In this document: positions 24,716-44,338 of the stretch, piece by piece
Numbering within the stretch: the first letter of the stretch is position 1
How the letters are laid out: every line of letters begins with the position of its first letter
NCBI GenBank assembly: GCA_001600815.1
Contig: BCKZ01000013.1
Span: 521,621-585,620, forward strand
Direction of reading: 5' to 3'
DNA: 64,000 nucleotides
From: Alloascoidea hylecoeti
Taxonomy: Eukaryota
The notes under the pieces: model-generated
Told to the model about the DNA's origin: nothing
Databases searched by the model: none
What the model saw: the letters and a program-made list of their open reading frames with translations, nothing else
Made by a program: the position numbers and the translations under genes

Positions 24716-27700
24716 TTTAAGAACAAAATTTTCAATTTCTTAATTTCTTTCTTAATTTTTCAATTTTTCAATTTCTCAATTTTTCACGGCCCTAAAATTT
24801 TTTCTGGGACAGAAGGTAAGGGGGCGTGGGACAAAAAGATTCAAGACAAAAAAATTCAATATAAATATATAAATAATAATAGAAATTTAAATGTGAATAT
24901 AAAAGCAATAGATTCGGTTATAAAAGAAGTATTTTCTTCTATTGGAGAAGAGCTGGTGACTTATTTGATGAAAATTGAAATATTAGTAAGTACAAACACA
25001 ACCACAAACAGAGTAGTAGAGGAAAGAAATAAGAGCACGAGAAAGCTCAAATAGTACGTAAAAGGCCACCGGGGAGTAAAATATAATATCAAATCAGACT
25101 CCAGGAAATAAAACCTTGTAACAGTGGCTATAATAGAACAGTTTGGTTGAACAGTTATATAATTAACAAAGACAAGCGAGGCGAGAGGAAAATCGAGGGA
25201 AGAGAATAAGAAGAAAAGAAAAAAGATTAATATCAATCAATATATATATAAATATATCGTAGGAATGAAGGTGAAATGCAACAGCTACACATACTACGCA
25301 GGCACTTTGAGGAATGAGTGTCAATTGAAAACCTCCACCAAATGCTCCGACCCGGCAACACCCGCCGATTCGCCAGTGGACTCCTGTAGTAAAGTGGCCG
25401 CCAGCGCAACCCCCCTGCCAGGCTTGCCACGCTTATCAGGTGTGCCAGGTGTGCTGGCCACTGTGGAGCCCCTATTTATGGCTGTCAATCCAGCATATCC
25501 GGGTGGAACATACAGTACTACATTCACCAGCCATAGTGTTTTGACCATATACCCAAGAAAGCTGTGGCCATAGCTGAGTCTATCAGATTTGGCATCTTTT
25601 ATCCCTAATATGAATTATCTTAACATGTACTTACTTGCTTCCTAAGCAGGCGACATTCTTATAATTATCACAACTCGCCCTATACTATGTTACATTCACA
25701 TCGATATCACTATACTACATTTATGATCTGTTGGGAAACATGCCAATGTATACAAAGCCACACCTGAAATCATTCAGTTGGAATTCAGAGAAATAAGCGT
25801 GAGTTTAAGAAAATCTAATGGTAATATACTACTATTTATAGAAGTGAAAAAAAGTGTTGATTTGATGGGGTATTTAATGTTGGTTGATTTAATAAATTTC
25901 AATTTATATTCGGTCGGTTCGTATTTCTGTTCCACATTCTAATTTTTGAGTAAATGTGCATGTTACACTAAAAAATAAAATTGAAAGATGGGCCATCCCC
26001 GATCTCGAAGATCAATTAAAACTCCAATTATACAAAGTTATAAGCCAACAATATAACATAGTATCATGTTTGGATTTTCTTTTTCTTTTTTATCTTCATT
26101 AAATGTATTTAAATTGTTGGTTATTAAAGTGTGAAATTCTCACCATTCTTGTCCCTGGAATTTAAATTTAACTTTTGCTAATGGAATTGAAACTTTTTCA
26201 TTTCCTGCAAATTTCCATTCCAGTTTCATCACCAGCCTTATGAGCCGAAATTGGAGTATTAATGCATATACTGTATATGTTAACAACTACAGTCAATTGC
26301 GAGCTTCAATATCCATCAAGAAAATAAGTGTATTGAATAGCCTTGATATTTATAGATTTCATTGTAATTGTTAAATATGAATGTCATAATTAAAGTTCAT
26401 ACGTAGAATCGATATCGATATCTCCATCATTTCATACGGATTATCGCTAAAGTGATCTGACCAATTGCAAATTCTATAACTTATAGTTATGTTATGTTAG
26501 TTAACTTGGAAAAATATACTGGCTGATCATCATAAAATTTCAGCTCGTTGCAATATGTAATTAATCCTATTCAAATAAAAGTCATGTAGCTCTAAGGACC
26601 AGCTCTTGCAATCTTAATCGTTTTGATGGTGCCATATATAGAGTTCTTTTAAATAAATTATATTTAAAAAGTTTTACTAAAGTCAATGAAAGGAAAATGA
26701 ATTAGAAAAGTAAATTATAAGACATACGTAGTACCTATTACGTACCATAGATATTCATAATAAAGTCATTAATTACTCATCCTCGAATTCACAACAATTG
26801 TGGAGAATCACTATTAATTATAATTATATCCATAATTACGAATTTAAACCTTCAGAAATCTTTGTCGCTTAATTATAATATGACATTGAACGACCCATAC
26901 ACATTTCTCCTATTGATATTTGATAAAGTGAATAGAATATTTAAAATTTCAGGGGTGAATTTTGCTAGTAACGTATAAAAGTATGAATATAGTTCTAGAT
27001 AGCAAGAGATTCTCGTAAAAACTAAGGATCTGAGTAGGATTAAAAGGATCGAGCAGTCCAAAACTGTTAATATTACATTTCAACTATGAATTGTAAAACT
27101 ATTAACAAATATAAATTATGAAAATATAGTATTAATAAAATCCACTTGATCTCGGAATTTAGATATTATAATTTTTTTTGTAAATATTGTTGTCGTGTAG
27201 GTATTCTTCTACGATTTAGCTTTTTGAGCTCAGAGTTTACTAACTCCAACCTTTAAACGTCATTTCAGGCATGCCACGATTAACTGAAAAGTGCCATGTG
27301 GGCATCATATGATACCTCTAAGTTTATAAAATAGTCAAACGTTTCTTTAATGCAAGCGCTGTACTGAAAAAGGAGGATTTATGAGGCTTAAAAATATTTG
27401 TGGGACCAACCCCAAGACGCGAAAGAGCTCTTCCTCTTTTTAGAACCACCAAATCATAACCCGCAACTAAAATGAAACGTACAAGGAATGAAAAGAAGTA
27501 TAAGGAGAAACAGAACAAGCTCATATGATCATACTCTCTGCTGTTGAAGCAACTGTCGTGTGTGAAAATTACCAAAATTTTTGGACCTGCTCGATACTTT
27601 GATCCTGCTCGAAACCTTTTCTGGTCTGAGGGTTCTTTTTTTCTTTGGCTCTCCCATTCCAAGTGGCACGCACACCTGTTCTATCGATTTTCTATACTCT

Positions 27701-29972
27701 CCCCCCTTTATTTTTTGGCTATTTTGGAGCCCGTGTACCCCGGGACTTTGGGTGTATAACGAAATATATCCAAAACCCCCATAAATACTACTAAAATAAA
27801 TTTCGCACTCTTTAATATTAAAATTCGTAAAATAGCTATAACAAAAATGTAATTTTTATAAATAATTATTCGTGAATTATAAAATATTGTTTGATCATAG
27901 AATGGACGAAGATGAATGAAATATAAGGAAAGAGACATTATTTGAGAGAGTATAACAAATTTTCGTGATTCAATCTATATGTATCTTAAGTAGAAACCAA
28001 TATATCAGATGTTGTCGATAGATATAGAACTTCAGTTCCTCAAAACCACATTTCTTACACTAATTTCCTTAAAAAAACTAAAAAGTGTTAAGTGTCATGG
28101 ACGGAAAAGAATCTCCTAAGTGTGTTTATATCATTTTAAAACTGTTATATGAATATTACAATTATTAATTAATCTTAAATTTTAATAACATCGCCATGAC
28201 CATAGAAAAGGTATGTAGTTATGAATTATATGAAGTGGTTCAAATTCATAAAATAAGGCAATTATATTTGGCCAACTATATAAATAGAGTCATGATTCGA
28301 TACCATTAATATCACTCATATATCTCCCGGTCATTCTATTCTTTCATGGACAATTGTTTTGTGTTCAGTATTCTAAATTGCCGTTCTATCTTAAATTTTT
28401 GATGTCATCAAACATGTCGGTAGTATCGCCTATTTGACGTTATAGTTATACTTAAATACTAAAAAGTTTGTTCCGTATTATTGTTGAATTAGAGTATCTA
28501 TTTCTTTACTTAAATTAAACTCATAGATATATTAAACGAGTGAACAAGTCCGGTCCTTTTCCATGAAATTAATATTTTAATCTTCAATTGAAAGTAATGG
28601 GATGAGAAATTTGAACTAAAAGAAAAACAGATTATTCGGTAATAACAGAAGAAAATGGAGTTTAACGGCGCTTAACTTTCAAATGCTATCTTAATTGTAA
28701 TAATTTCCCTATAATTAAATCACCATTGATTTACCAATATTTTTTATATTCACTAGACCTTGGTACCTTGTTGTTAACGTTACATGGTAAATTTAAAGAT
28801 TTTAAAGTTATAGCATCAGAACCCTATCAGATCGATCGGGTTAATTATGGGTTATTAAATTTTACGGTACTAACGGTAATTATAAACAAAACATTCTTTT
28901 GATCATATAAATCTTAGACTTCTTCCCCAGTATAGGATACATCGATTGGGACCCAGACAATGAAATTGAATGAATATTATACTCCTAGCTATACTATAAA
29001 TCCTAGAACTCTATGGGTTTAATATAAAAAGACAAGGAAATTGATGATTATAAGTTATAACCATTCCATTCAAAACTAATATTATTCGTCTAAATATTAG
29101 ATATCCCCCATTTTCACGTTTGAAAGCTAGCTTTCATGGTCAGAATTCAAGATCATACTACAAAATGAATATTTTTCATAACTGGTACCTGTTTTCCAGA
29201 AACAAGAATGCATTCAATGCAATCGTAAAAGTATTTTAAAAGGTTAATCTTGAATCTAATTAACCTCGTTAAACTATAATTCTTGACTCGCTCTATCTTT
29301 TCGATTACGAGTTCTCCCAGCCTATAAGAACCTCTACAATAACACTAACGATTGTAAAGTTAATAAAACGTTTTCAATTGATTTGATTATCAAATTTTAT
29401 AATATTAAATATTACTAAAATTCAACTTAAATTTCTATATAAAAGACAAATGTATTTATCATATCATATTAAGTAAGGACAAGAGGGCAAAAAAAATTAG
29501 AAAAAAAATATATAAGAGACGGTATTAAAGTCGAAGAATATCAAAAAATAATTAAGTATATAATAATATAATTTGTTTTTCTGTTTAAATTCCTTTAAAT
29601 GATAAAACAAAATATGCATCTGAAAATTTAAAATAAATAAAAAAAAAAAAGATTAAAGAGTTTTTTTTATAAAATATTAGGAAGTAATTTTCTTTCTTTT
29701 TTTTACGGTTTTTTCTATCATTAGTATCCATATCATTTATTAAACATCATCCATTTCAAAATAAAAAAATAAGATATTATTATTAAGTATTATTCTTTCT
29801 TTGCCATCTTGTCATTGTATTATTATACCGAATTGCATCGTATTAAATTTAATTTAATAATCAAAACTTTATTAAAACTCATTAACAAACATAATTAAAA
29901 TTAGACTCAAAAACGAAAGGTATTATTATTATTATATGCGCAAAATTAACATTAACATTTAACTTTTTATTA

Positions 29973-32900
29973 TTAACCAGACTTCTCGTGTTGAGTAGAG
30001 ACTCTTTGCATTGAAACAATAAAGTCTTCCAATGTTCGTTGTGATGGTTTATCTTTCTTGGATTCTCCATGCATGAACCTATCAAAGGATTCAGAACCTT
30101 GCATAAGATAGTATAATCCACCCAAGACACAGAAAACACCGAAACTGAAAATCCAGACTCGGACAACAGCAACAATGGAAGTGTCACCAGGACAGAACCA
30201 ACCCCAAATACAGAAACATGTAGCAATAACATCAACGATGAAAACTGCACCAGCTAATTGCCATGATGGAATAGAAGACCAGAATGGACCATTAGCACGA
30301 GTAATGAAAATTAACCAATTTTCTGTAAGAGAAATTTGTAAAAACATAACACCATCTTGAGTACCAAAGTTTTGGATAATACCACCACCACGAACAAACA
30401 TAGTAGTTAAAGTGATCCAAGAACCAACAGCTAAGACAATTCCAAGAATAATAGACATACCCCATAATGTGGGTAAATTCCATTTAACAGGTTTTGGGGA
30501 GTATGGAGCATTATCATAAGCAATGGCTAAAGTAGCAACATCAGCAAAAATAGCGATAAAAACAACAAGATTAATATCCAAAGAGTTATTTAAGATAGCA
30601 ATCCATAAACCCAAAAAGATTTCCAAATGTAAAGATAAAGCGATACGATAAACAACGTAAGAGTACATTCTGTGGAAAATTTGTCTAGAAGTTTTTAATA
30701 TTAATCGGTAAAACTGATAGAGTAAAAAAGATAAAGTAAATAGTATATTAAATAGGAATAAGAAAAAGTAGAGAGTTAAATCCAATGGATTTAACTGTCT
30801 TATATATGTAACTATATAGGCTAAATAATAATAAGGAGGTGGCAATAATATTAAGGGGCTTGCTGTAGTATATGAATGACCACGTAACCCCTGCATATCT
30901 AATATGCAAGGCATGTAGTTTAATATAAATCTGAAACATATGTAGATCATTTGATGATTGATCTGCACTGCATATCGGATATGTAAGCATGAAATAAGTT
31001 AATTAAAATTGAAATAACAACATTTAAAGCATCAATAATAGCAGATAAACCAGGGGCCAAGAAAACAATATCGGCAGCAGATCTAGCAGCATCGGAAGCA
31101 CCTTCAACAGCAATACCAGTATCAGCTTTCTTTAAAGAAGGAGCATCGTTAACACCATCACCAGTCATAGCAACCAAGTAACCACGTTGTTGTAAGATTT
31201 CAACGACATTATATTTATGTTGTGGGAAAACTTCAGCAAAACCATCAGCAGCTTCAACGAAATCATAAACTTCAGAACCGGGCATATCACCAGCACCACC
31301 AAGACCAAGACGTTCAGCATTATAAATGTTAGTACCGAGACCTAATTGACGAGAAGTTTCTTTAGCAATACCAACAGCATCACCAGTTAACATCTTAACA
31401 GATAAACCTAAATCTCTAGCTTCGTGGACAGTCTTTGCGGTATCATGACGAGGAGGATCCATACAAGGCATAATTCCCAAAATTTCCCAATGACCTTCAC
31501 CACGCTTTCTAGCAACACCAAGAGATCTGAAACCACGGGAAGCAAATTCAGCAACGATATTCTTATAGTTTTCCAAAACTTCTTCAGAAACTGGATGATC
31601 TTCTTCGACAGTTTTCAAAACGAAAAGAGGAGCACCTTTAACACAAACAATTCTTTCACCTTGTGGAGATTCAACAACAGCAACAACTCTCTTTGAAACA
31701 GGATCAAAAGGATGGAATTCAATAACTTTGTATTTTGGTAAAGCAGCTTTAGCACGAGGATATTGTTTCAAAGATTTTAAGAAAGCTTTATCAATAGCAT
31801 CAAGACCCTTCTTCTTTCTGGTAGCAGCTAAACAAGCAGTTAACATAAGATCATCAGGTTCAACACCTTCAACAGTGTAAGGTTCATGTAAAGATAACTT
31901 GTTCTTGGTTAAAGTACCAGTTTTATCGGAACATAAAATTTCAACACCAGCTAAAGATTCAATAGCAGATAATTTTTGAACAATAGCTTGCTTTTTGGCC
32001 AAGTAAGCAGCACCAACAGCCATAGTAGTTGTAACGACAGCTGGTAAACCGACTGGAACACCAACAATTGTAATAGCTAAAGTGTATCTTAAGATTCTGA
32101 CAATTCTGTTAGTTCTGTAGAAACTCGCAACCCAAACGACTAATAAAGTAGCAATGACCAAAACAAGTAAGATAGTACCAATACCGTTCAAAACTTCAGT
32201 GAAATGACCAGTACCAGAGGAAGCCTTGTTGACTAAAGCAGCAGCACGACCGACGAAGGTATTGTCACCAGTAGCAGTAACAACCATGAAGGCTTCACCA
32301 CGTTTAACAGTGGATGAAGAGTAAGTAGAGTCACCAGAATGTTTGTCGACAGCCAAACTTTCACCAGTAATAGCAGATTGATCAACCTGTAAAAAGCAAT
32401 CTTCAGAAACTAATCTACCATCAGCTGGGATAACGGTACCTTCTTCCAATTGTAAGATATCACCTGGAACGACTTCAGCAGCAGGGATCTCAACTAAATG
32501 ACCATCACGAATAACACTGGCTTGATGGGCCAAAGTTTTCTTCAATTCTTCAACGATACTACCAGCTTGGAATTCTTGAATAAAACCAACACCGGCATTA
32601 AGGAGTAAAAGACCACAGATAACACCAAAATCAACCCAATCTTCAAGACCAGCAGCTAAAACAGCAGCAGCTTCCATAACGAATTGAATTGGACCGACAA
32701 AAAACATACAAAACTTTAAGATGAGATTTTCAGACTCTTCATTCATTTGATTGAGACCAAACTTCTTTCTTCTTTGTTGAACTTGATCAGAACTAAGACC
32801 GACTCTTGGATCAGTTTGCAATAATTCTTCAGGGACAGGTCTAGCGGAACCACCAGCAGCTACAGATTCATTATCGAAATCATCATCACCTTGAATGGAT

Positions 32901-33001
32901 TGCAATTCTTCGACAAGAGCGTCGATGTCAGCATCCTCTTCTTCAGCAGGAGGAGCAATAAACTCCTTCGTTGGCTCTGTTGTTGGGTCGAGCGACGACA
33001 T
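29973..33001 (-). CDS. PMA1: Plasma-membrane H+-ATPase, interrupted at ...IIDAL^KTSRQ... by a 324-bp insertion plus 5-bp duplication (899 aa if removed exactly)
   Basis: [42 protein letters not shown] and C-terminal [13 protein letters not shown] at 33001. Both halves are otherwise free of stops and frameshifts. Confidence 0.93.
30699..31022 (+). mobile_element. Solo-LTR-like insertion (324 bp) inside PMA1 with 5-bp target-site duplication
   Basis: Direct repeat tttaa at 30694-30698 and 31023-31027. Termini are TATT... and ...AACAACA (TG...CA with one change). Internal TATAAAT near 30924. Size is typical of yeast LTRs. Confidence 0.75.
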
Positions 33002-33329
33002 TATGTTGAATAAACTATTATGAACTAAACCGAAAGAGTGTTGGAGAAAAAAAAAGAAGAAAAAAGCGGGAAGAGGGAGTTTTATAAGCAAAACAAAGGA
33101 ACAAACAAAGAATCTGAGATTTGGGAAAAGCAAAAAAACGCAAAACGCAAATTATTACAAAAAACGCAAAAAACGCAAAAAAGCAGGCCAGCCTTTCATT
33201 AGCCGTAAACAATCAAAGTACGGCTTGCATGCAGATGGATGCATGCTGGCTACCTCAAAAGGATTCCTCTTCCGGGGTCTTCTTCCCTCTTTCTGGGTCC
33301 AGGAGCTCGCAATTAGGGTTGTGTCTGGC

Positions 33330-33780
33330 TTTAGGGTTTCCCTTTCCAGAGGAGGGTCCTGGAAGAAGGGAGCGAGCGGGCAGAACGCGATGAGAACATG
33401 ATCATCACAAGCTGGGACGCTGGAAATCGGGCTGGAAATCGGGCTGGAAATCAGACTGGAAATCAGACTGGAAATTGAATGGGTTGCGGGAATATCGAGC
33501 TAGCGGGTCTTCTCGCGCACCGACGCCGCACCCGCATTCGCACCCGCACCCGGGCCTCCTGCGTTCGTGCATGCTTGTTATTCCTTGGCAGCTGCAGCGG
33601 TCTATTTATGTTTTGCCGCATGTGTCTTGTAGCGTCTGTTTTGTGATCTGATCTCAACGTTACAATCTGTGCTGTGCTAGCTGGGGCGGCCCTCTGATTG
33701 GCCCGTGCCGTTGCCGAGTGGGTCCCGAGACCAGCAGAATGTGTGGTCACCGCACGTGACCTCTCTCTTCGGCTCGATTA
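33330..33780. promoter_or_regulatory. GC-rich PMA1 upstream region with candidate sites
   Basis: About 5 x 12-bp CTGGAAATC(GGG/AGA) at 33420-33475, GCACCC repeats at ~33527-33551, CTTGGCA (Rim101/PacC-type) at 33584-33590 and CACGTGAC (Cbf1-type) at 33753-33760. Confidence 0.55.
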
Positions 33781-34821
33781 TAGTTGCGCACAATAAATTG
33801 TTGTAGGAATGTAGTGTTAGTGGCTACGTCATACCTACTAGCAGCACCCGACCCGATCTGCCTGTTATTTAACCGACCAACAATTCAATTATATAATTGT
33901 TGTACAATTATAATTGTCAACAACACCACTCATCCACACTTTAAACCTCCTGAATTAATTTTTCTAATTTTTCTCAGTTCTTCTTCGTTAATTGCTCTAG
34001 TTACTTCCATCCATAATTTATACTTCTTGACTGGTGATGACAATCTCCTCGCACTTTTGTCTTGCCATTCCAAGAAATTTGTGTCTTCGTGCACAACTGA
34101 AAATTTTTTACCAATTTACACAAATATCCTAATCGCAATTGAAGATCCCAAACTGAAACTCCAAACATACTTTATCCATTTTAGACATATCTATCCCACC
34201 ATCACATTGATTCCGTTACATAATTGCTATTTGATTCTTGACTGTTGAAAAGTTGAAACTTCCTCTGATTATACCTTTATATGCATAGCTTGAAGCATCT
34301 TCTCATTATAGCATTATAATTACTACCAGCATCACAGCTAGCGATAATCATGACGATTCAGACACCAAATTCAGATTGTGCAAGAACCTGCAGCTTTCAT
34401 TGATTTACGTTTGTTTCCTTATCTATGTATTCAATTTCAACATCTTAAGCTTATAGGTTTATCAAAAAAATTGCAATTTTTTGATAACGATAGTTTTGGA
34501 ATTAATATTTTCTTGATATGTTGTGATTTGTAGAATCAATTGATATTGCTCCTTAATGTTAATTGTTATCGATATCATAATCTAAACCTATAGAAATCTT
34601 AATTGATGTAAATGAAAAAAATATATTTTGATTAATTATTAAAGTTAAACTATTTTCTAGTCTGTTTGGTTTGATTTAAATAAAAGGAACCTACTTCTCC
34701 ATTAATTTTATTTTTTATCTCTTCTAAACTATATTTAAATATCTAGTATCTAATAATTAATTACTTCTTCTAAATTTTTAGTAGCGTTCTCTTGGTCAAT
34801 TGCATACTATGAAGGTACCGA

Positions 34822-34823
<2 letters not shown>

Positions 34824-34856
<33 letters not shown>
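34824..34856 (+). repeat. (CAT)n microsatellite, about 11 units
   Basis: Read directly. Confidence 0.9.
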
Positions 34857-34857
<1 letters not shown>

Positions 34858-37800
34858 GCTTAATGCCCATAATTCATTAATATAATCTGATGTTCATGAT
34901 TACGTTCTGTTTCATAATCGTTTTTGATTTTGTTGACATATCATATGATTTCAAATTTTCAATTGGTTACGAGGAAATTGATTGCAATTGGGTGTAAATC
35001 GATGTAATTGATAGATCATGATTAGATTATAGATCAATGGTCATCACAACAACTGTTTAATGATATTATTATATATTTAAAACAATAACGTGGTATGTAA
35101 CATGTTATATGATCCTATACTTCAATTGAACAATTTGAACAATTTACACCTGTAAACACAATTGCAACTGTATGAAGTTTGTTTTTCTATGAACCTCCAA
35201 TTGCAAATTTTGAACAGATAAATACAAAAATAATAGTCGTGCGATCCATGTCTATTTTAATATAAGGCTTACATTATCTGATTACATGAATCACCTTAAT
35301 TCTATTGTTATGCTTACTTTAATGTATATAGAATAGGTTCATTAATAACAAAGAAGAATGACTATGCAATTCTAATTAGATATGATATAAACATTGTGAA
35401 GGGTCTTTTCCGATAATTTATATAATTACCTTATATGCCCAAGAAAGAATGGGACAATTTCAAGAAGCGGTCATTGCTATAATACTATTTTGTTCCTGAA
35501 ATAACATTTTCATCTTTTAAGATCATAAGTTTCATAAATATATATCATCAATTCCATGATCATTTTCTAAAAATTTAATGATTTATAATAAAGTATTTAT
35601 ATACTGATCAAAATTATTGAATGAATGAGGGATTTTTTAACATTTTTACTTTAAATCTCTATTCCACACTTGAAATTTAATTTCGAACATACCGGTCCGA
35701 ACTTCACAACTGAATTAAGGTTTTAGGTAAAAAAAAAAGTCTCTGTTGTTCAATTGCTACTACAAAATGTCAATTTATAAAACAAGCCAACATATATTTA
35801 TCGATCCAAAAGTTAAGACGTTTCAAATAATAGTTGTAGATATACTTCATATACTAAATTGAAATTTATATATAACACTCCAAAAAGTTTCATTTTATTA
35901 TGTATGATTTTATTTATACCCTGTGGTGGATCCTTTTTCTTTCTCACCCCATTCAACATTTTTCTAATTAAGTAATCAAGCACCAATTGAAAATTTGCAA
36001 ACTTTATTACTTTATTTTTGTTTTGTTTACTTTTCTATTTCGCTCTTTTGATATTTAGAATTTTAAAGTTTATCAAACCGTTTTGTGTTTTTTTTTTTTT
36101 TTTAAATTTTATTTTTTTGACGTCTAAACTATAAATTTATATTAAAATAAAAAAATATTATTTTACAAGTAACTAAATCTTTTTTCTTCTCTAGTTTTCT
36201 CCTATCATGTTTAAAATGTTATGATAAGCAATTTTTAAAGAAAAAAGCAATTTTTAATTTCTTAATTTTTTACTTTTTGATTATCGGATTTAAAAATTAA
36301 AAACTAGTTTAAATTAACACTATTATAGATAACATATCAACACTCTTATAGATAACATACCAACACCATATCAACTATCAACTAGAGCTTTATCAGCTAT
36401 AAACGTCTATAGTGGATAGTGGATAGTGAACTGAACAATTTAAAGATGTGCGTGCAATATCGTAAGCTTATTCATTTACGTATACGGTTATATCAACCAT
36501 TACAAGGCATTTATATCGATATGGTACAGGATGTCATAATAGCTAGTTAGGTTGTAGATGTGAACAGATCAGCAGTTGCATTAACTACAATGGACAAGGA
36601 AACCTTTAATTACATGTATAAAGCAATCTAAACATAAATAACTGATGATCTAATCATGAATTTTCTCTGAAGCAATTTATAATAGCATACAACAACGTTA
36701 ATGTTATAATTAATTACATTACCATGGCCAGGAATTTCTGGAATTGTAAATCTTCTCTGTTATGATATTAGCTAATTATAATCGAACGATTAATATTTCA
36801 ATTTTTAACACCTTTAAATTTTAAGTTCATCGTGATCGAGATGGTGTAACAACAGACATGTCTTAGCATATAATTAATAATGAAGCTTCAATGTTTCTAT
36901 TAATGCTGCAATTAACAATCGATTAAGTAATTAATTATAAGGATTGTCTTAATGTTTAAATGTTTTGTTAAACATTTTTTACATACACTTAAAATAAAGA
37001 TCAAATATATTATAATTACGGTGTGGTAACACTGTGGTAACACTGTGGTTGTTACTACATGTGAATTATAACAGTTTTTTTTATTCTATTTAATGGTTTA
37101 AATTTTTTTCACTTATTATCATATATTTTTATGATTATGGGATAATAATTAATCTAACACATGCTTTCAATCTTTAAATAATAAATTTAATAATAATTAA
37201 AGGATTCGAAGAAAAATTCAAAGTGGAGGATAAACAAAGTATGGATGGATCCAGTAGAGATCAGGTACCCGCATACAACATATCTGCGGTACCGACGCAC
37301 GCTTACTTCAATTCAATTATTATATTATTTGTTCATATTCAGCATTATAGGAAATTTAAAGATATCTCTCAAACTCCGCAGAATTAAATATATCACTCAT
37401 ATCTCATTTTACTACCGATTATCTAATAACTGTCCTAGTGGAGTATTTTTGGGTATATCGGTAGTATCGATGGTGAAAAATATAATGACAAACTAAAGAC
37501 TATTTATTAATAATGAGCTATTAAATATTAATATTATATAAATAAAAAAAGAAGTTTTATCCCGTAAGATTATAAATAATTATATATTTTTCCAATTGAT
37601 CCTCGGATTCTTGGCATCCAAGAATGTGGGGAAGATAATTTTTTTTTTTTTTTTGTCGATTCTAAACTAGTTATTTATCTAGTTTTGTTTGTTTTGACAG
37701 CGGCTATTCTTTTTTGAATCTTTGCAAGAATTGATCATCGGTTGAACGTTAAAAGTTATTAGAAGACAAAGCTGTAAAACCATCAACTCTATTGGCTGGA

Positions 37801-39114
37801 ATAATCTTCCTAAACGTTAACAGTTTTTTATCGGAATTTCAAGTATTAAAATATATGGATGCTTATTACCTCGTGTTCAAAAACTACATCATTAATTTCG
37901 AATTCTGTAATTCTTCAAAATATTAATTGACGTAATGTGTCATACTTATTAGCCAGCCTACAAAGTCTAGCTAGTATTCAATGTTACAAGCAACTTCTTA
38001 TTGGTTAGATAAGCAAAGCGGTCTCAAGTCTTAACTTTAGTTCTTTTGAAAATAGCTTGTGTGTTAGTAATATATTACATTATATTGTTCTAATTAAATT
38101 ATAAGGCGACGTTCTCACTAGCTAGAATTCTAGTACGTAATATATTTATTTGGTTATAACCTAGCTTTTGATCATAATTACATCTAAAAATCTTTAATTT
38201 GGCAATTTGGTGTCTTTTTTTTTTCAAACTGCTTCTTCAAATAATTTGTGGTAAGTCAACCCATGCATTTCAGATGAGCTTGTTTTAACTTGCACAGGAC
38301 TGATATTGTAGAATCTATAGCTAGCGCTACGGTCATTCTATTGCAATGAGATAGCTAGCTTAATAAAAGGTCACAATTGGTCATGATCATATGTTACACC
38401 AAGATCATAATTAACTCCATCTACTATAACTGATCAATATATATATAATCATCAATCTTACTGGATATTGATAACTAGTATTAATATAAATTTCCAATTT
38501 TCTATCCGCCTGTCTTTTTAAATTTAATCCCACACGTTATAATTATATATTTGCAATGATAACCAATAGACAGGATTCAATGATAATATGACACCTGTTC
38601 ACGTCTAGATTAATGATGATCATATGCTTTCTTAACAATTTTTTTTAAATTTGTTGTTTTAACTATGTTTACATACAACAACATGTTATTATGACTCTTT
38701 AAATTTCTTTTTCATTCTGCAGCTAGTTATAAAGTCTTAAGCTTGAGCCGCAACCACCGGGAATCCGCATTCTTGATCCCTAGTCAATTTTAGGATCCCG
38801 ATATCTCCCAGCTTATATACACCTAAAGAATAAAGGCATCCATCAAGTCTCACATTTGAAGTATTTCCCTTTTTCGGTCATTTATACCGGTAATTAAATA
38901 TGAGATAAATCTTGATTACTATATCTATTCAATTGTAGCCAACAGTCAAATGTATAACATTTATTAGATCTAGCAATATAAATTCCCCTGTAAGGTATAT
39001 ATAGTTATAGATGCACCTTAAGATCAATATAATATACCCTATTAGCGCTAGCTAAAACATCTTAATTTTTGATACAAAATTTACCATTACAAAGACCTCC
39101 TTAATATCCCTTCT

Positions 39115-39490
39115 GAAAAAATATGGATACGAAAGAGTTTCGGCCCGTAAAAGGGCCTCTTCTAAATGAGAAGAACCAGAATAGTACATAAAGATATGGT
39201 ATTAAGATAGGTTGCAGTGGTCTCAGGAAGTTTGAAATGGTGTTGCATTTAATGACTAATAAATCGGCCACTACAGGATCTGGAATCTGGATTCAGAAAA
39301 TTATATGTTAGACAGTATTCGGGCTTAGACTCTTCACCTCAAAATATTTATAATATAAGGAAGCCTAAGTCTGTGAGTACTAAGTAGGTATCATGGTCTG
39401 AAATTTGGAATGATGTTCGTACTTTACTGCTCAGAGATCCTGACACTCCATGCTTCGTACTAAAGCTACTAAACTTAAAATGTCATTTTA
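39115..39490 (+). repeat. Dispersed repeat family, copy 2 (similar to 19650-19975)
   Basis: aaaatatggatacg...gggcctcttc, ctcaggaagttt, gtctgtgagtacta, gatcctgacactccatgcttcgta and tactaaacttaaaatgtcatt, colinear with copy 1. Confidence 0.7.
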
Positions 39491-41419
39491 TATAGATAAA
39501 TAAAATATATAGAATTTAAAAAACATTATGTACCATTTTAAGAGCATTTTAAGGCCTTGTGGAGTACGCAGTACTCAATACCTGATTAATATTGTGGTTA
39601 TAATATTGCCATTTTTATTTAGAATGTTGCAACTTTAGACTTGGCCATTGCAGAGTGGTTGGCCATCCAAAAATAAAACAATCGCCAACATCACCAAAAG
39701 TTCACTGGATATTCTGTATAGACAAACTATCTGCCCTAATCCTTTCACCTGACATATTTGTATCCGTTTTTCTGTTTTAAGCCCAAAGTTGGAGGGTTTC
39801 TTCTTCTTTTATTTTGCACAACGCACGATAACAATGCAACCACTATACCACAAAGTAAAACTTAAATTGATAAATATAGGGGAATAAATAGCTAAGTCGC
39901 CTTAACTTGTCATCCAACTAAATGTAAAGAAAATAAAGGGAATTTTCTTGGTCTTAATGAAAAATGATACCTACTTCCAAAAAAAATGTCAAGAATTGTT
40001 AACATAAATTGGGGTTTGTTTTTTAAATGTGTTATAACGTTTGACTTTATATATAAATTATAAATTCCAGTTTCAGACCTCAAATATCGAACATCAATTA
40101 CATCAACATTGATATACCTCGTCAATATTAATATTATGTATTAATAGTATATATTGAGTCAATTCTGGTAAGTAATTCTCATTATTTTCCATAATTATCA
40201 TATAGCTTAAACATAAAGTCGTAAAACAAATCAATTAATATTAATCACATTTAAGTATATCCTATATGAATTATTTTAATCAAATATATCCTTTTAGGTA
40301 TTATTTTCATATATGATTATAATTCAATTTTGATGATTAGCTCAAGCTCAAACTATGTTGATGATTTATATTTTTGTTTATCATATGGTGCGTGCCACTC
40401 AAAATGAGCAACTTTTTTCTGGAGCGAAATTTTGGTCTCTAGAAAAGTATGCATGCAATTGTACATACTACGATATGAGGAAATATAATAGCATACATTT
40501 GTATGCCCTCATCTAAGTAAAGTAGATTATATTGCAGCTATGCATGTGAATTACATGATCGTATCCAAATATGTCCTTATTTTTGTATGACCGTGAAATA
40601 TGGAGGCCTGCATAGTTAAGAAATAGGGACAAAATATTTGACAGAGAAGAGAAAATATTAATTTGAAAATAAAGAGGTTTATATATATTTTCCATTTATT
40701 GACCTTCTGTTTCCTTTAATATAAATAATTGAAGTGGTTTTGATGGTGTGGTCACATTTCCTGGGAAGATCGTTAAAATATTTACTAAAATTTGTTCATT
40801 TTAAGTGGCGTGCGCAGTTTAGGCCGTAGTAATTACATTTATAAAGTGTTTCCAGTTATTTTAGGCACCTAGATAGAAAGGGTATATGTATTACATAACA
40901 TGTAACGAGATATATTTGTCAATAATTTGTTTCTGCCTTAACGAAAGATTTCTATCCACATACCGAAAACAACCGGAAATATTTTAAATGATAATGATAA
41001 TTATTCTTAAAATTTTATATTTTCTCAAACATGTGAAAATTTCCTTTATAATTATAAGTTATATCTTATTTATACTGACGCTTTGATTATGATACCAGTT
41101 GCAATTGAACTACCAAATAATTAAACCCAGTCAGTTCCTATATTATTGTAAATGATGAAAAACAATTTCCCAAGAAGTTTGAGAATTTTTGATATCGGAT
41201 AAACTTACAAATAGTCAATCCGAACTCGAGGCGTGGATCAGTTAGATCCGAACAATCATGAAGAAGATATTTGTTTTGCAATTGATTCCCTCTATTAATT
41301 TTACAGTTTTATATATAAGACCTTATATTGATTATTGAAATTAGTCATTAATAAGCTTAGAAAGCTATATTGTTTTTTCTAATATATTTTATTTGCGTCT
41401 GAATGATTATATTAATATT

Positions 41420-41467
41420 GGTATTAATGAAATCAGGTATTAATGAAATCAGGTATTAATGAAATCA
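41420..41467 (+). repeat. Tandem repeat, 3 x 16 bp (GGTATTAATGAAATCA)
   Basis: Read directly. Confidence 0.9.
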
Positions 41468-44338
41468 TATAGTGTACATGTTTAAAGAAATATTGCAAAT
41501 AAAATTTGATTATAACATTATGATTGTTAATTATAATATCCATAGATATATTCATCGTCAATTTCATTTAAGGTCCATCATTTCCTTATGACCTGAAGCT
41601 TTTATTTCCAAAACTTAAGCTCATTTATATATTTCAACAAATAATACAATTGCAACGTTAACTAATAATTAACAGAACACAATTAACTAATACCACCAAC
41701 TTCAGTTACTTGCTGCTTCAACCCTCCATTCTCATCTAATCTGTATATTAAAAGGAATAAAATTACATTATTTTAAATAACAGTGATATATGTGCAGTCA
41801 CAAGAACGGATCATAGCATCCCAGATAGAAAATCCATACAATTTCCCTTAATTTCGGCCAAGATTAAAAAACTTTATTCATAACTATTTAAGCTAAATAT
41901 TCGACTACATGATGGATTAAATTAACGGGCTATGGGTCAACTATGGTTCTTAACCACAAATATTTTCTAAAATTATAGTATGAGAAAAATTATTAATAAA
42001 CTTGATCTCCAGCTATTAATAAATTATCATGCTGTCTATAGTTATAGTTAGCTATTAATTGTATCTATAAGATAGTTATAATCAAATATAGCTCTATAAC
42101 TTTGGCATAATTAAGTAAATCTACCATCTCACGACAAGACCTATAGATTAAGATCTAGAGCTTACGTCAAGTTTTATAGCTGACTGAAAACTTAATTAAG
42201 GGGTTTCAATATATAATTCCTTAAGTTTGTGAAAACTTTCTTTGTTTTCATGAAAAATGCTTTGAGTTTTCCCAATATAATTCGGTAAGTAATATGTTTT
42301 CTATTAATATTGGATATCTCATACCTCTACCTATACCTAGACTGTATAAATATAGCCTATAGCTTACAGCAGCTGTAAACAACAAATGGTAACAACTAAA
42401 AGTAGAGCCGGTCATAGTTATTTTCCGAAAAAACTAATATGGCATATTTTTTACATAGATACATTAGGTGAAAGAGGAAGTTAAACCGGGCGCTTAAGTA
42501 ATAACATAGGGAATATATACAGTCTCTAGCTTAGTAGCTTTGTGTCTAGTCCAAATATTAACTACCACTTTAACTACCAATTTATTTTGCTGGAAATAAA
42601 CATAATAGGCAGCGAATTAAACTTTAAGTATATTCTAAATTTCCAATTGCTCCATAGTTATTACAAGTAGCTAGATCCTAGTCCCTTATTTAACAGATTG
42701 ATTTTCTATTTTTCCATAGTAATTAACCTTGTAACTTGGAATGTTTATGATATTAACTGAATAAAACTTGAAATTTTGTTCATATTAGTTATATTAATGT
42801 TAATATTATTATTACTGTCAAAAATCTGGATAAAGATTTTGCTACCACGTATGTACACATCATTATTGTAACATTATGAAGTGTTACATAAAGGAATTGA
42901 CAAAATTCAGACAGTAAATGTACAAAATGTTTGATGTAACTTTTACTTTAGAATTACTTTTTAGACTTTGGAGCCGTTGACTAACTAAAAGATTTCTATT
43001 TATAACTTCTATTCTTTATTTATACTAATTTTATAGTGTTCGGAAGAATAAATCAAATCTAAAACACTAATTATATAAGTTTGATGAATATGGTGTTTCA
43101 TAATCAATCGATACTATGAGGTTATAAATAAACGCCCATTAAGCGCCAAGCCACCAAAAAAAATCTTACTTCCAATTGATCATGACAATCTAGCATTCTT
43201 ATAGTCATTTAATTATAAGATTAAAAGTTAAATCATAATCTGATTACAAATATAAAATATTGCGAAGATTCAATTCATAGGAAATTAGGAATGTAGGTTA
43301 CGGCCTTACGAACTAAACCCTGATCTGCTAACCAGTACACACTAGACCAAGCCCTAGAAATACCTATAAATTAATTTATTAAATTGAGCCCACAATATAG
43401 TTTAATTATAAATATAATAATTGTAATTAAAAGTTTAATTGAAGGGTAAATCTACAGACGTAGCCATTTTGGAATTCAGCAATTTATTTGACTTATATAA
43501 CAATATTACCTATATAATGACTAGATATTCACCAAAATGTATAACAGTTACTTATAACCCTTTTTTTCTTGGCCGCTTTTTCAGTTAAAAAGGAGCCAAA
43601 TATCTGGTGTATATAGCCTTATAAGTATTCAAAAGAATGGCCAAACGTTATTGTATGAAATAGAAGCGTCCATAGATAAACCCTTAATTGAATCAATAAG
43701 TTGAGAGCATATATTAGTAGTACTAGATGTCACACAGTGTCATATATCTCTAAATAATGTATCAGTGCTTCTATCTCTTCTAGATCAATACCTTTCAATA
43801 TAACTTTTTATCTATATAAAAACAAATGAATGAAAAATTTGCAAATGTAAGGAAAAAAAAAAAATTTGTAAGAATGAAATTAAATGAATAAATAATTATA
43901 TAATTGATGAATGTTCCTATTTATTTTTTATTTTTATTTTTCAAAAATATAAGAAATGAAATTTTAAATCAATTGCAATGCATATGCTAAATGAAGGATT
44001 AATATATTTTTTAAAATGTTTTTTGAACAATCAACAATAAATTAAATCTAAACAAAAATAGAACAGTTATTATGGGATATTATCCAAATCCAATGTTTAT
44101 CAGTTGAACAAACATTTCCTTTACCAATAATAATGTACGAAGGAAGTGAAAAAGGTGCCAAAATATATAAAAACAAAACAGACCAAACCACTTAAAAAAA
44201 CCGTTTTAAAATTTCTTATGGTGAATACATATAGTCATAGTCAAAAATTGTATATGCAAAAAAAAAAATAGAGGATTTTCTTTTTTTTTTTTCCCTTTCA
44301 GCTTGCAATTGATCATGACCATTTTTGCTAAACTTCAT

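Follow-up and report, generated by a model that had tools for sequence, protein, structure and literature searches.

Taken at face value, the genome assembly analyzed here presents a yeast that survives with an essential proton pump cut in two, and it raises the question of whether this interruption of PMA1 belongs to the gene structure of the species, to an insertion carried by some of its DNA, or to the assembly process. In the window, the whole 64,000-nucleotide stretch of DNA that was analyzed, PMA1 is encoded on the minus strand and its start codon, ATG, is at 33001, as seen from the open reading frame and its translation. Its 5' part (31023..33001, minus strand), defined by reading frame, translation and protein match, encodes residues 1-659, and its 3' part (29973..30698, minus strand), defined by reading frame and protein match, encodes residues 659/660-899 followed by the stop codon. 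Between them lies a 324-bp LTR-like insert (30699..31022, minus strand) in the same orientation as the gene, which is delimited both in the sequence and by contigs of sequencing runs. The insert is bordered by two copies of TTAAA on the minus strand, a gene-upstream copy at 31023..31027 and a gene-downstream copy at 30694..30698. On the coding strand the locus reads ATT ATT GAT GCT TTAAA, then the insert from TGTTGTTATT to CCGATTAATA, running from 31022 down to 30699, and then TTAAA and AACTTCTAGA; after this second TTAAA the PMA1 sequence resumes with AACTTCTAGACAA. The codon for residue 659, the last of the 5' part, uses the first TTAAA copy.

Straight read-through of PMA1 into the insert gives 659 native and 25 foreign residues, followed by a premature TGA inside the insert that is evident from the frame and its translation (30947..30949 on the minus strand, read as 30949-30947). 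The inserted form would accordingly be predicted to be a null allele, whose product is cut after residue 659 with the 25 foreign residues appended. We also considered an intein-like read-through and rejected it because the frame stops inside the insert. Removal of 329 nt, that is the insert and one TTAAA, restores an 899-residue Pma1, and all six registers in which this excision can be placed yield the identical product. In none of the six do the ends of the excised segment read GT..AG or AT..AC. PMA1 contains 0 CTG codons, so a reassignment of CTG would make no difference here. The TTAAA repeat cannot be extended on either side, and at any one pair of positions five letters would agree by chance with a probability of about 0.002 in the local base composition. 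The initial annotation had proposed that PMA1 is split by an insertion with a 5-bp target-site duplication rather than by an intron, and that its exact excision restores the 899-residue protein in no GT-AG register. Both proposals are upheld, by the exact TTAAA repeat, by the six registers and by the existence of the uninterrupted site as DNA, which is described below.

With a GC content of 28% vs 31% for the window, the insert is rich in A+T and has short clusters of G and C. Its first letters are TGTTG and its last are TAATA, and its termini form an imperfect inverted repeat in which TGTTG is paired with TATTA, read from the opposite end; with the 3' end reading GATTAATA, this repeat is reduced to T-R-T-T-R. 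TATA-like motifs lie about 105-120 nt from the 3' end. In its middle, at 30770-30800, there is a near-perfect palindrome of 15+15 nt (93% complementary, arms 1 nt apart), and two related 20-mers at 30891-30910 and 30968-30987 pair as an inverted repeat. The palindrome and the paired 20-mers may be regulatory sites of the element.

The normal splice signals of the organism are displayed by a 70-nt intron (23157-23088, minus strand) of the form GTAAGT..ACTAAC..TAG, which joins two reading frames, 24739-23108 and 23103-21484, of a gene for a PUF-repeat protein. The initial annotation had described introns of 62-70 nt with GTAAG and CTAAC signals, and this description is borne out for the one intron that was examined. 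A regular-expression search of the window for introns of the form GTAAGT..YTAAC..AG returned 3 candidates, not above the number in shuffled sequence (mean 6.9); the other candidates were set aside and the PUF intron alone was taken as real.

The product of PMA1 displays the features of a fungal plasma-membrane H+-ATPase, namely an E1-E2 ATPase domain, a cation-ATPase N-terminal domain, a HAD domain and similarity over its full length; precomputed Pfam assignments are PF00690, PF00122 and PF00702. Named fungal Pma1 proteins among the matches listed, from Myxozyma, Cyberlindnera, Kluyveromyces and Lipomyces, reach 84-86% identity at best over 96-100% of the query, the 658-residue N-terminal part. 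Judged by these matches, the host is a budding yeast that has no close relative among annotated species. The homologs among the 120 matches listed are 790-935 residues long and uninterrupted. The top match, here P0001, is an unnamed 899-residue protein from an NCBI assembly, encoded on a 7267-nt contig and forming a cluster of one. It is identical to the PMA1 5' part at 658/658 residues and, over its residues 659-899, to the 3' part at 241/241 residues. As both parts are thus 100% identical to it, P0001 represents the exact join of the two halves seen in the window. Given that no GT-AG register exists, P0001 could not have been called from the inserted form by way of a canonical intron, and the simplest source for it would be an uninterrupted PMA1 reading frame in another public assembly.

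To trace the locus in sequencing data we used Logan contigs of four runs, X1, X3, X4 and X6, in which depth is a mean per contig and not a copy number, and which can show the presence of a sequence but not its absence. X1 may be the sample behind the assembly that contains the window, and has 0 differences to the window in the flanks and the insert. X4 is labelled as the same organism and comes from another study, and X3 is a wood-decay metagenome. Of 14 runs listed as containing the sequence, none was an RNA run. X6 comes from another organism and lacks coverage of the site; it yielded a 219-nt identical piece at depth 2.6 along with matches to conserved P-type ATPase motifs. A joint from 30693 to 31023, which skips 329 nt and has five shared letters, is found in 3 of the 3 runs that cover the site: on an 8208-nt contig of X1 (depth 57.1, 0 differences), a 6076-nt contig of X3 (depth 9.16, 0 differences) and an 852-nt contig of X4 (depth 9.3, 1 difference). 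These empty-site contigs carry one copy of TTAAA ('both = 5' at the joint), and in all three runs they stand at the depth of the neighbouring PMA1 contigs. No piece running from a PMA1 flank into the insert is seen among the 28 contig pieces listed (66 more exist). Every sequence data set from the species contains an uninterrupted PMA1. The initial annotation had implied an essential gene that is broken and shows no other decay; this implication is not supported, as the empty-site PMA1 stands at flanking depth in 3/3 runs and the intact 899-residue P0001 is on record.

The same three runs contain a second PMA gene without the insert, on an 832-nt contig with a depth of 62, 11.3 and 10.1 in X1, X3 and X4, respectively, which is the depth of the PMA1 contigs in each run. 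The initial annotation had proposed looking for such a gene and for an empty-site allele. The second gene differs from PMA1 at 84 of 513 aligned places (about 84% identity in DNA) and aligns on both sides of the site, at window positions 30588-30695 and 31065-31469. Beside the site, 40 other letters replace the PMA1 stretch, and by eye the frame is kept (..APGLS.IIDA..). The gene lies outside the window and could be a PMA2-like paralog or a homeolog.

The existence of this gene gives some substance to a rival explanation, in which the assembled isolate would carry the insertion in fixed form, with PMA1 dead and its proton pump provided by the second PMA gene. The second gene, in frame across the site and at PMA1-like depth in each of the three runs, could serve such a role, and the assembly itself contains the inserted form only. 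However, X1, which has no difference to the window, holds the empty-site contig at flanking depth. Further, the two halves of the interrupted gene are 100% identical to the intact protein and no relaxed selection is visible in them, although a very young event would look alike in this respect. Hence, we regard a fixed insertion covered by the second gene as unlikely.

The insert itself behaves as a high-depth repeat. In X1 it forms a contig of its own, exactly 324 nt long with 0 differences to 30699-31022, whose depth is 10037 vs 57.1 for the flanking contig (about 176 times, a rough guide, as these are means over whole contigs); at 30724 the depths add up to 15137. From each end of the insert two X1 contigs continue into unlike sequence, the two continuations being mutually unlike as well (agreement 0.6-0.67). 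In X3 the insert lies within a 3087-nt contig at a depth of 92.4 vs 9.16 for the flank (about 10 times) with 3 differences and 1 gap, and in X4 a 731-nt contig at a depth of 90.5 vs 9.3 (about 10 times) covers the last 168 nt of the insert. The insert copies in X3 and X4 are different at 3 places, vs 0 in the dominant X1 copy. Read on the strand of the element, a nine-purine run (AAGAGGGAG) directly abuts the TGTTG end in both X3 and X4, where 30 letters are visible on each side; a polypurine tract in front of a 3' LTR would occupy this position. The 30 letters after the TAATA end do not begin with TGG, as tRNA primer-binding sites usually do. The depth of the insert, taken in relation to the PMA1 contigs at its flanks, spans about 176-265 times in X1 vs about 10-20 times in X3 and X4, and in X1 the insert copies all collapse into the one identical 324-nt contig. 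Within the window, a blastn search with the insert and a self-blast of the window recovered no second copy of it, and the self-blast recovered no other dispersed repeat. Two 24-mers of the insert gave 0 matches each in the metagenome_contigs collection, and one insert 24-mer gave 0 matches in viral_contigs.

This behaviour, in conjunction with the anatomy of the insert, points to a long terminal repeat. LTR retrotransposons leave target duplications of 4-6 bp, mostly 5 bp, and the insert has one of 5 bp; their LTRs begin with 5' TG, in yeasts often TGTTG, and the insert begins TGTTGTTATT. As is typical of LTRs, the unit is also multi-copy and recurs with the same two boundaries in different contexts in X1, with other contexts in X3 and X4. 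The deviation lies at the 3' end, where LTRs have CA (CAACA) and the insert ends TA. Integrases normally need CA at this end. No reading frame for a reverse transcriptase or an integrase is present in the window, and we found no report in the literature of a solo LTR or retrotransposon in PMA1. The insert is probably an LTR of an LTR retrotransposon of the Ty1/copia or Ty3/gypsy type, as suggested by its features in the sequence and in the contigs. Of the initial annotation's reading as an LTR, the discrete multi-copy element and the LTR-like TGTTG start are supported. The accompanying suggestion that one terminus had already mutated after the element landed is not supported: the high-depth X1 contig is identical over all 324 nt including the TA end, and this end was therefore not acquired by mutation after the insertion in PMA1.

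We consider it likely that the insert is a very young LTR of a TG..TA family, placed by an integrase and not fixed in PMA1. The 324 bp would represent a single LTR from a family of LTR retrotransposons that is multi-copy and has non-canonical TG..TA ends, and an integrase-type reaction would have placed a copy in PMA1, duplicating the 5-bp target TTAAA. The insertion would be heterozygous, carried by a fraction of the culture that was sequenced, or confined to the assembled isolate; the assembly would show the insertion-bearing path, with the null allele carried by an intact copy. The identity of the PMA1 copy, letter by letter, to the dominant X1 copy implies that the insertion is very recent, and the intactness of both PMA1 halves would follow from its being both very recent and not fixed. 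As part of this reading as a whole, we likewise hold it likely that the insertion is heterozygous, subclonal or private to the assembled isolate. Among these states, heterozygous or subclonal is the most likely, and fixation in the isolate covered by the paralog is less so. As the path through the repeat has enormous coverage, the assembler could have promoted a subclonal insertion. The true allele may contain a solo LTR or a full-length element; the latter, if reduced to a single LTR during assembly, would have the same appearance.

The more than tenfold difference in depth between X1 and X3/X4 suggests that the element underwent a burst recently, or exists as extrachromosomal copies, in one isolate, and an extrachromosomal source could by itself also yield such a difference in depth ratio. 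A part of the difference may come from diverged copies that are split over several contigs. We tentatively extend the favoured reading, as a possibility short of an expectation, to a TG..TA family that is undergoing a burst at present in one isolate, or accumulates there as free cDNA in the manner of Tca2, with the PMA1 insertion as a fresh heterozygous or subclonal event of that family. If a burst is indeed the cause, then the reference assembly has caught a new insertion in an essential gene of a little-studied wood-associated yeast.

The coverage of the repeat also bears on the possibility that the interruption is purely an assembly artefact and that the repeat was never inside PMA1 in any DNA molecule. 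A join between PMA1 and the insert is absent among the 28 contig pieces listed, every run that covers the site has it empty, and assemblers can favour a path through a very high-coverage repeat. Against this, the PMA1 site and the ends of the repeat share no overlap through which an assembly graph could be mis-joined, and both junctions are exact and together form a 5-bp duplication, the signature of integration. In the absence of mis-joinable sequence and with a target duplication made up from both junctions, a pure artefact is quite unlikely; at most, the assembler promoted a rare but real insertion.

The variable depth of the insert would also be compatible with a captured piece of extrachromosomal DNA, from a mitochondrial genome or a plasmid, that became the patch of a chromosome break. 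The AT-rich composition of the insert, with its short clusters of G and C, would fit such an origin, and the depth ratio of the insert varies between samples, from about 176 times in X1 to about 10 times in X3/X4, in the way that an organelle or plasmid might. However, captures of this kind during break repair do not give a clean 5-bp target duplication, and the unit in X1 stops exactly at the insert ends with two unrelated continuations on each side. The TGTTG start and the purine run that precedes it in X3 and X4 likewise count against a capture, and the difference between strains has a retrotransposon precedent in the free DNA of Tca2, for which a passage of PMC4139406 gives about 50 copies per cell. 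We hence consider such a capture very unlikely, and the target duplication together with the discrete ends argues against a nuclear copy of mitochondrial DNA (NUMT). That the insert is an unconventional intron, or an element removed at the RNA level from a gene that still works, is scarcely credible even though its exact excision restores the frame, as no register has GT-AG or AT-AC ends, three DNA runs contain the 'spliced' form as DNA, the insert occurs at high depth elsewhere in the genome, and the homologs of about 900 residues among the 120 matches listed are uninterrupted; we rejected intron status and RNA-level removal on the lack of splice ends and on the empty site that exists as DNA.

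The surroundings of PMA1 in the window consist of ordinary yeast genes, including those for aspartyl proteases, STT3, ERG4/ERG24, a PUF protein, MEC1/ATR and others; scans of the window gave 0 tRNA genes and 0 Rfam matches. PMA1 lies between two AT-rich, frame-poor stretches at 34300-44300 and 25600-29900. The upstream one extends over 10 kb with a single 99-residue frame and the downstream one over 4.3 kb. Among the 61 frames of at least 45 residues beside PMA1 none has a credible Pfam match and there are no decayed retroelement genes, nor do the stretches beside PMA1 contain internal repeats. These stretches are unusually long for a compact yeast genome, and the candidates for them are a large regulatory region, a centromere-like region or unannotated RNA genes. 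Immediately upstream of PMA1, 33001-33800 forms a G+C-rich island (46.5% vs 31% for the window) that includes 4.8 tandem copies of a 12-mer at 33419-33475, an array of CCGCAC hexamers at 33526-33552 and a palindrome around a CACGTG core near 33750. The repeats and the palindrome are probably promoter elements.

Returning to the question raised by the assembly, the data show an intact allele in every set as well as a second PMA gene. For annotators this means that the split PMA1 is to be treated as an insertion allele or as an assembly path, and not as the gene structure of the species. The event is an ordinary polymorphic insertion of a known kind of element and is as such of modest interest. 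Two modest points stand out. A yeast LTR family seems to function with TA in place of CA at its 3' end, and the more than tenfold difference in abundance between isolates points to a family that may be active at present.

Comparison with known elements places the insert close to the LTRs of other yeasts. Passages of PMC4139406 describe yeast LTR families of 127-780 bp with mostly 5-bp duplications, A/T-rich target cores and TG..CA ends, and give 251-371 bp for the LTRs of S. cerevisiae Ty1-Ty5 (delta, sigma, tau, omega), as compared with the 324 bp of the insert. Likened by features, the Ty1-Ty5 LTRs and the insert share the 5-bp target duplication, the TGTTG start and the presence of many copies per genome, whereas the former end CAACA and the insert ends TAATA. 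The insert interrupts the coding region of an essential gene that is highly expressed, whereas the usual landing sites of Ty elements are silent chromatin and the vicinity of tRNA genes. Solo LTRs arise through recombination between two LTRs. To our knowledge, no yeast LTR family has been described with TG..TA ends.

Candida albicans, in the account given in parts of PMC4139406, has many small LTR families (127-780 bp) with mostly 5-bp duplications and A/T-rich target cores, in line with the insert. Its element Tca2 (pCal) has an imperfect terminal repeat, TGTTGG..CCATCA, that recalls the imperfect ends of the insert, and accumulates as free linear DNA at the copy number given above (same source and parts). 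It thereby offers a precedent for the depth of about 176-fold in X1 vs about 10-fold in X3/X4, where extrachromosomal copies of the unit may likewise be present. The comparison is also one with a different organism, the best named Pma1 relatives of the window being only 84-86% identical.

For the non-canonical ends the nearest parallels come from plants, where LTRs of the non-TGCA kind include those of Tos17 (TG..GA) and AtRE1 (TA..TA) and a 'TGTA' type, according to sections of 10.1101/137141. Like the insert, these elements combine non-canonical ends, TG..TA among them, with short LTRs (mean 272 bp), and they tend to land in or near genes, as the insert did in PMA1 (10.1101/137141, same sections). 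They are Copia elements of plants, whereas the insert is from a yeast. In its consequence for the host gene the insertion may be compared with the classical Ty and solo-delta alleles of yeast genes, in which an LTR element in or beside a gene gives rise to an allele, null or altered, that some strains carry and others lack. Those alleles were selected in the laboratory in genes that are non-essential or conditionally needed, whereas the present one lies in PMA1 and came to light in a genome assembly.
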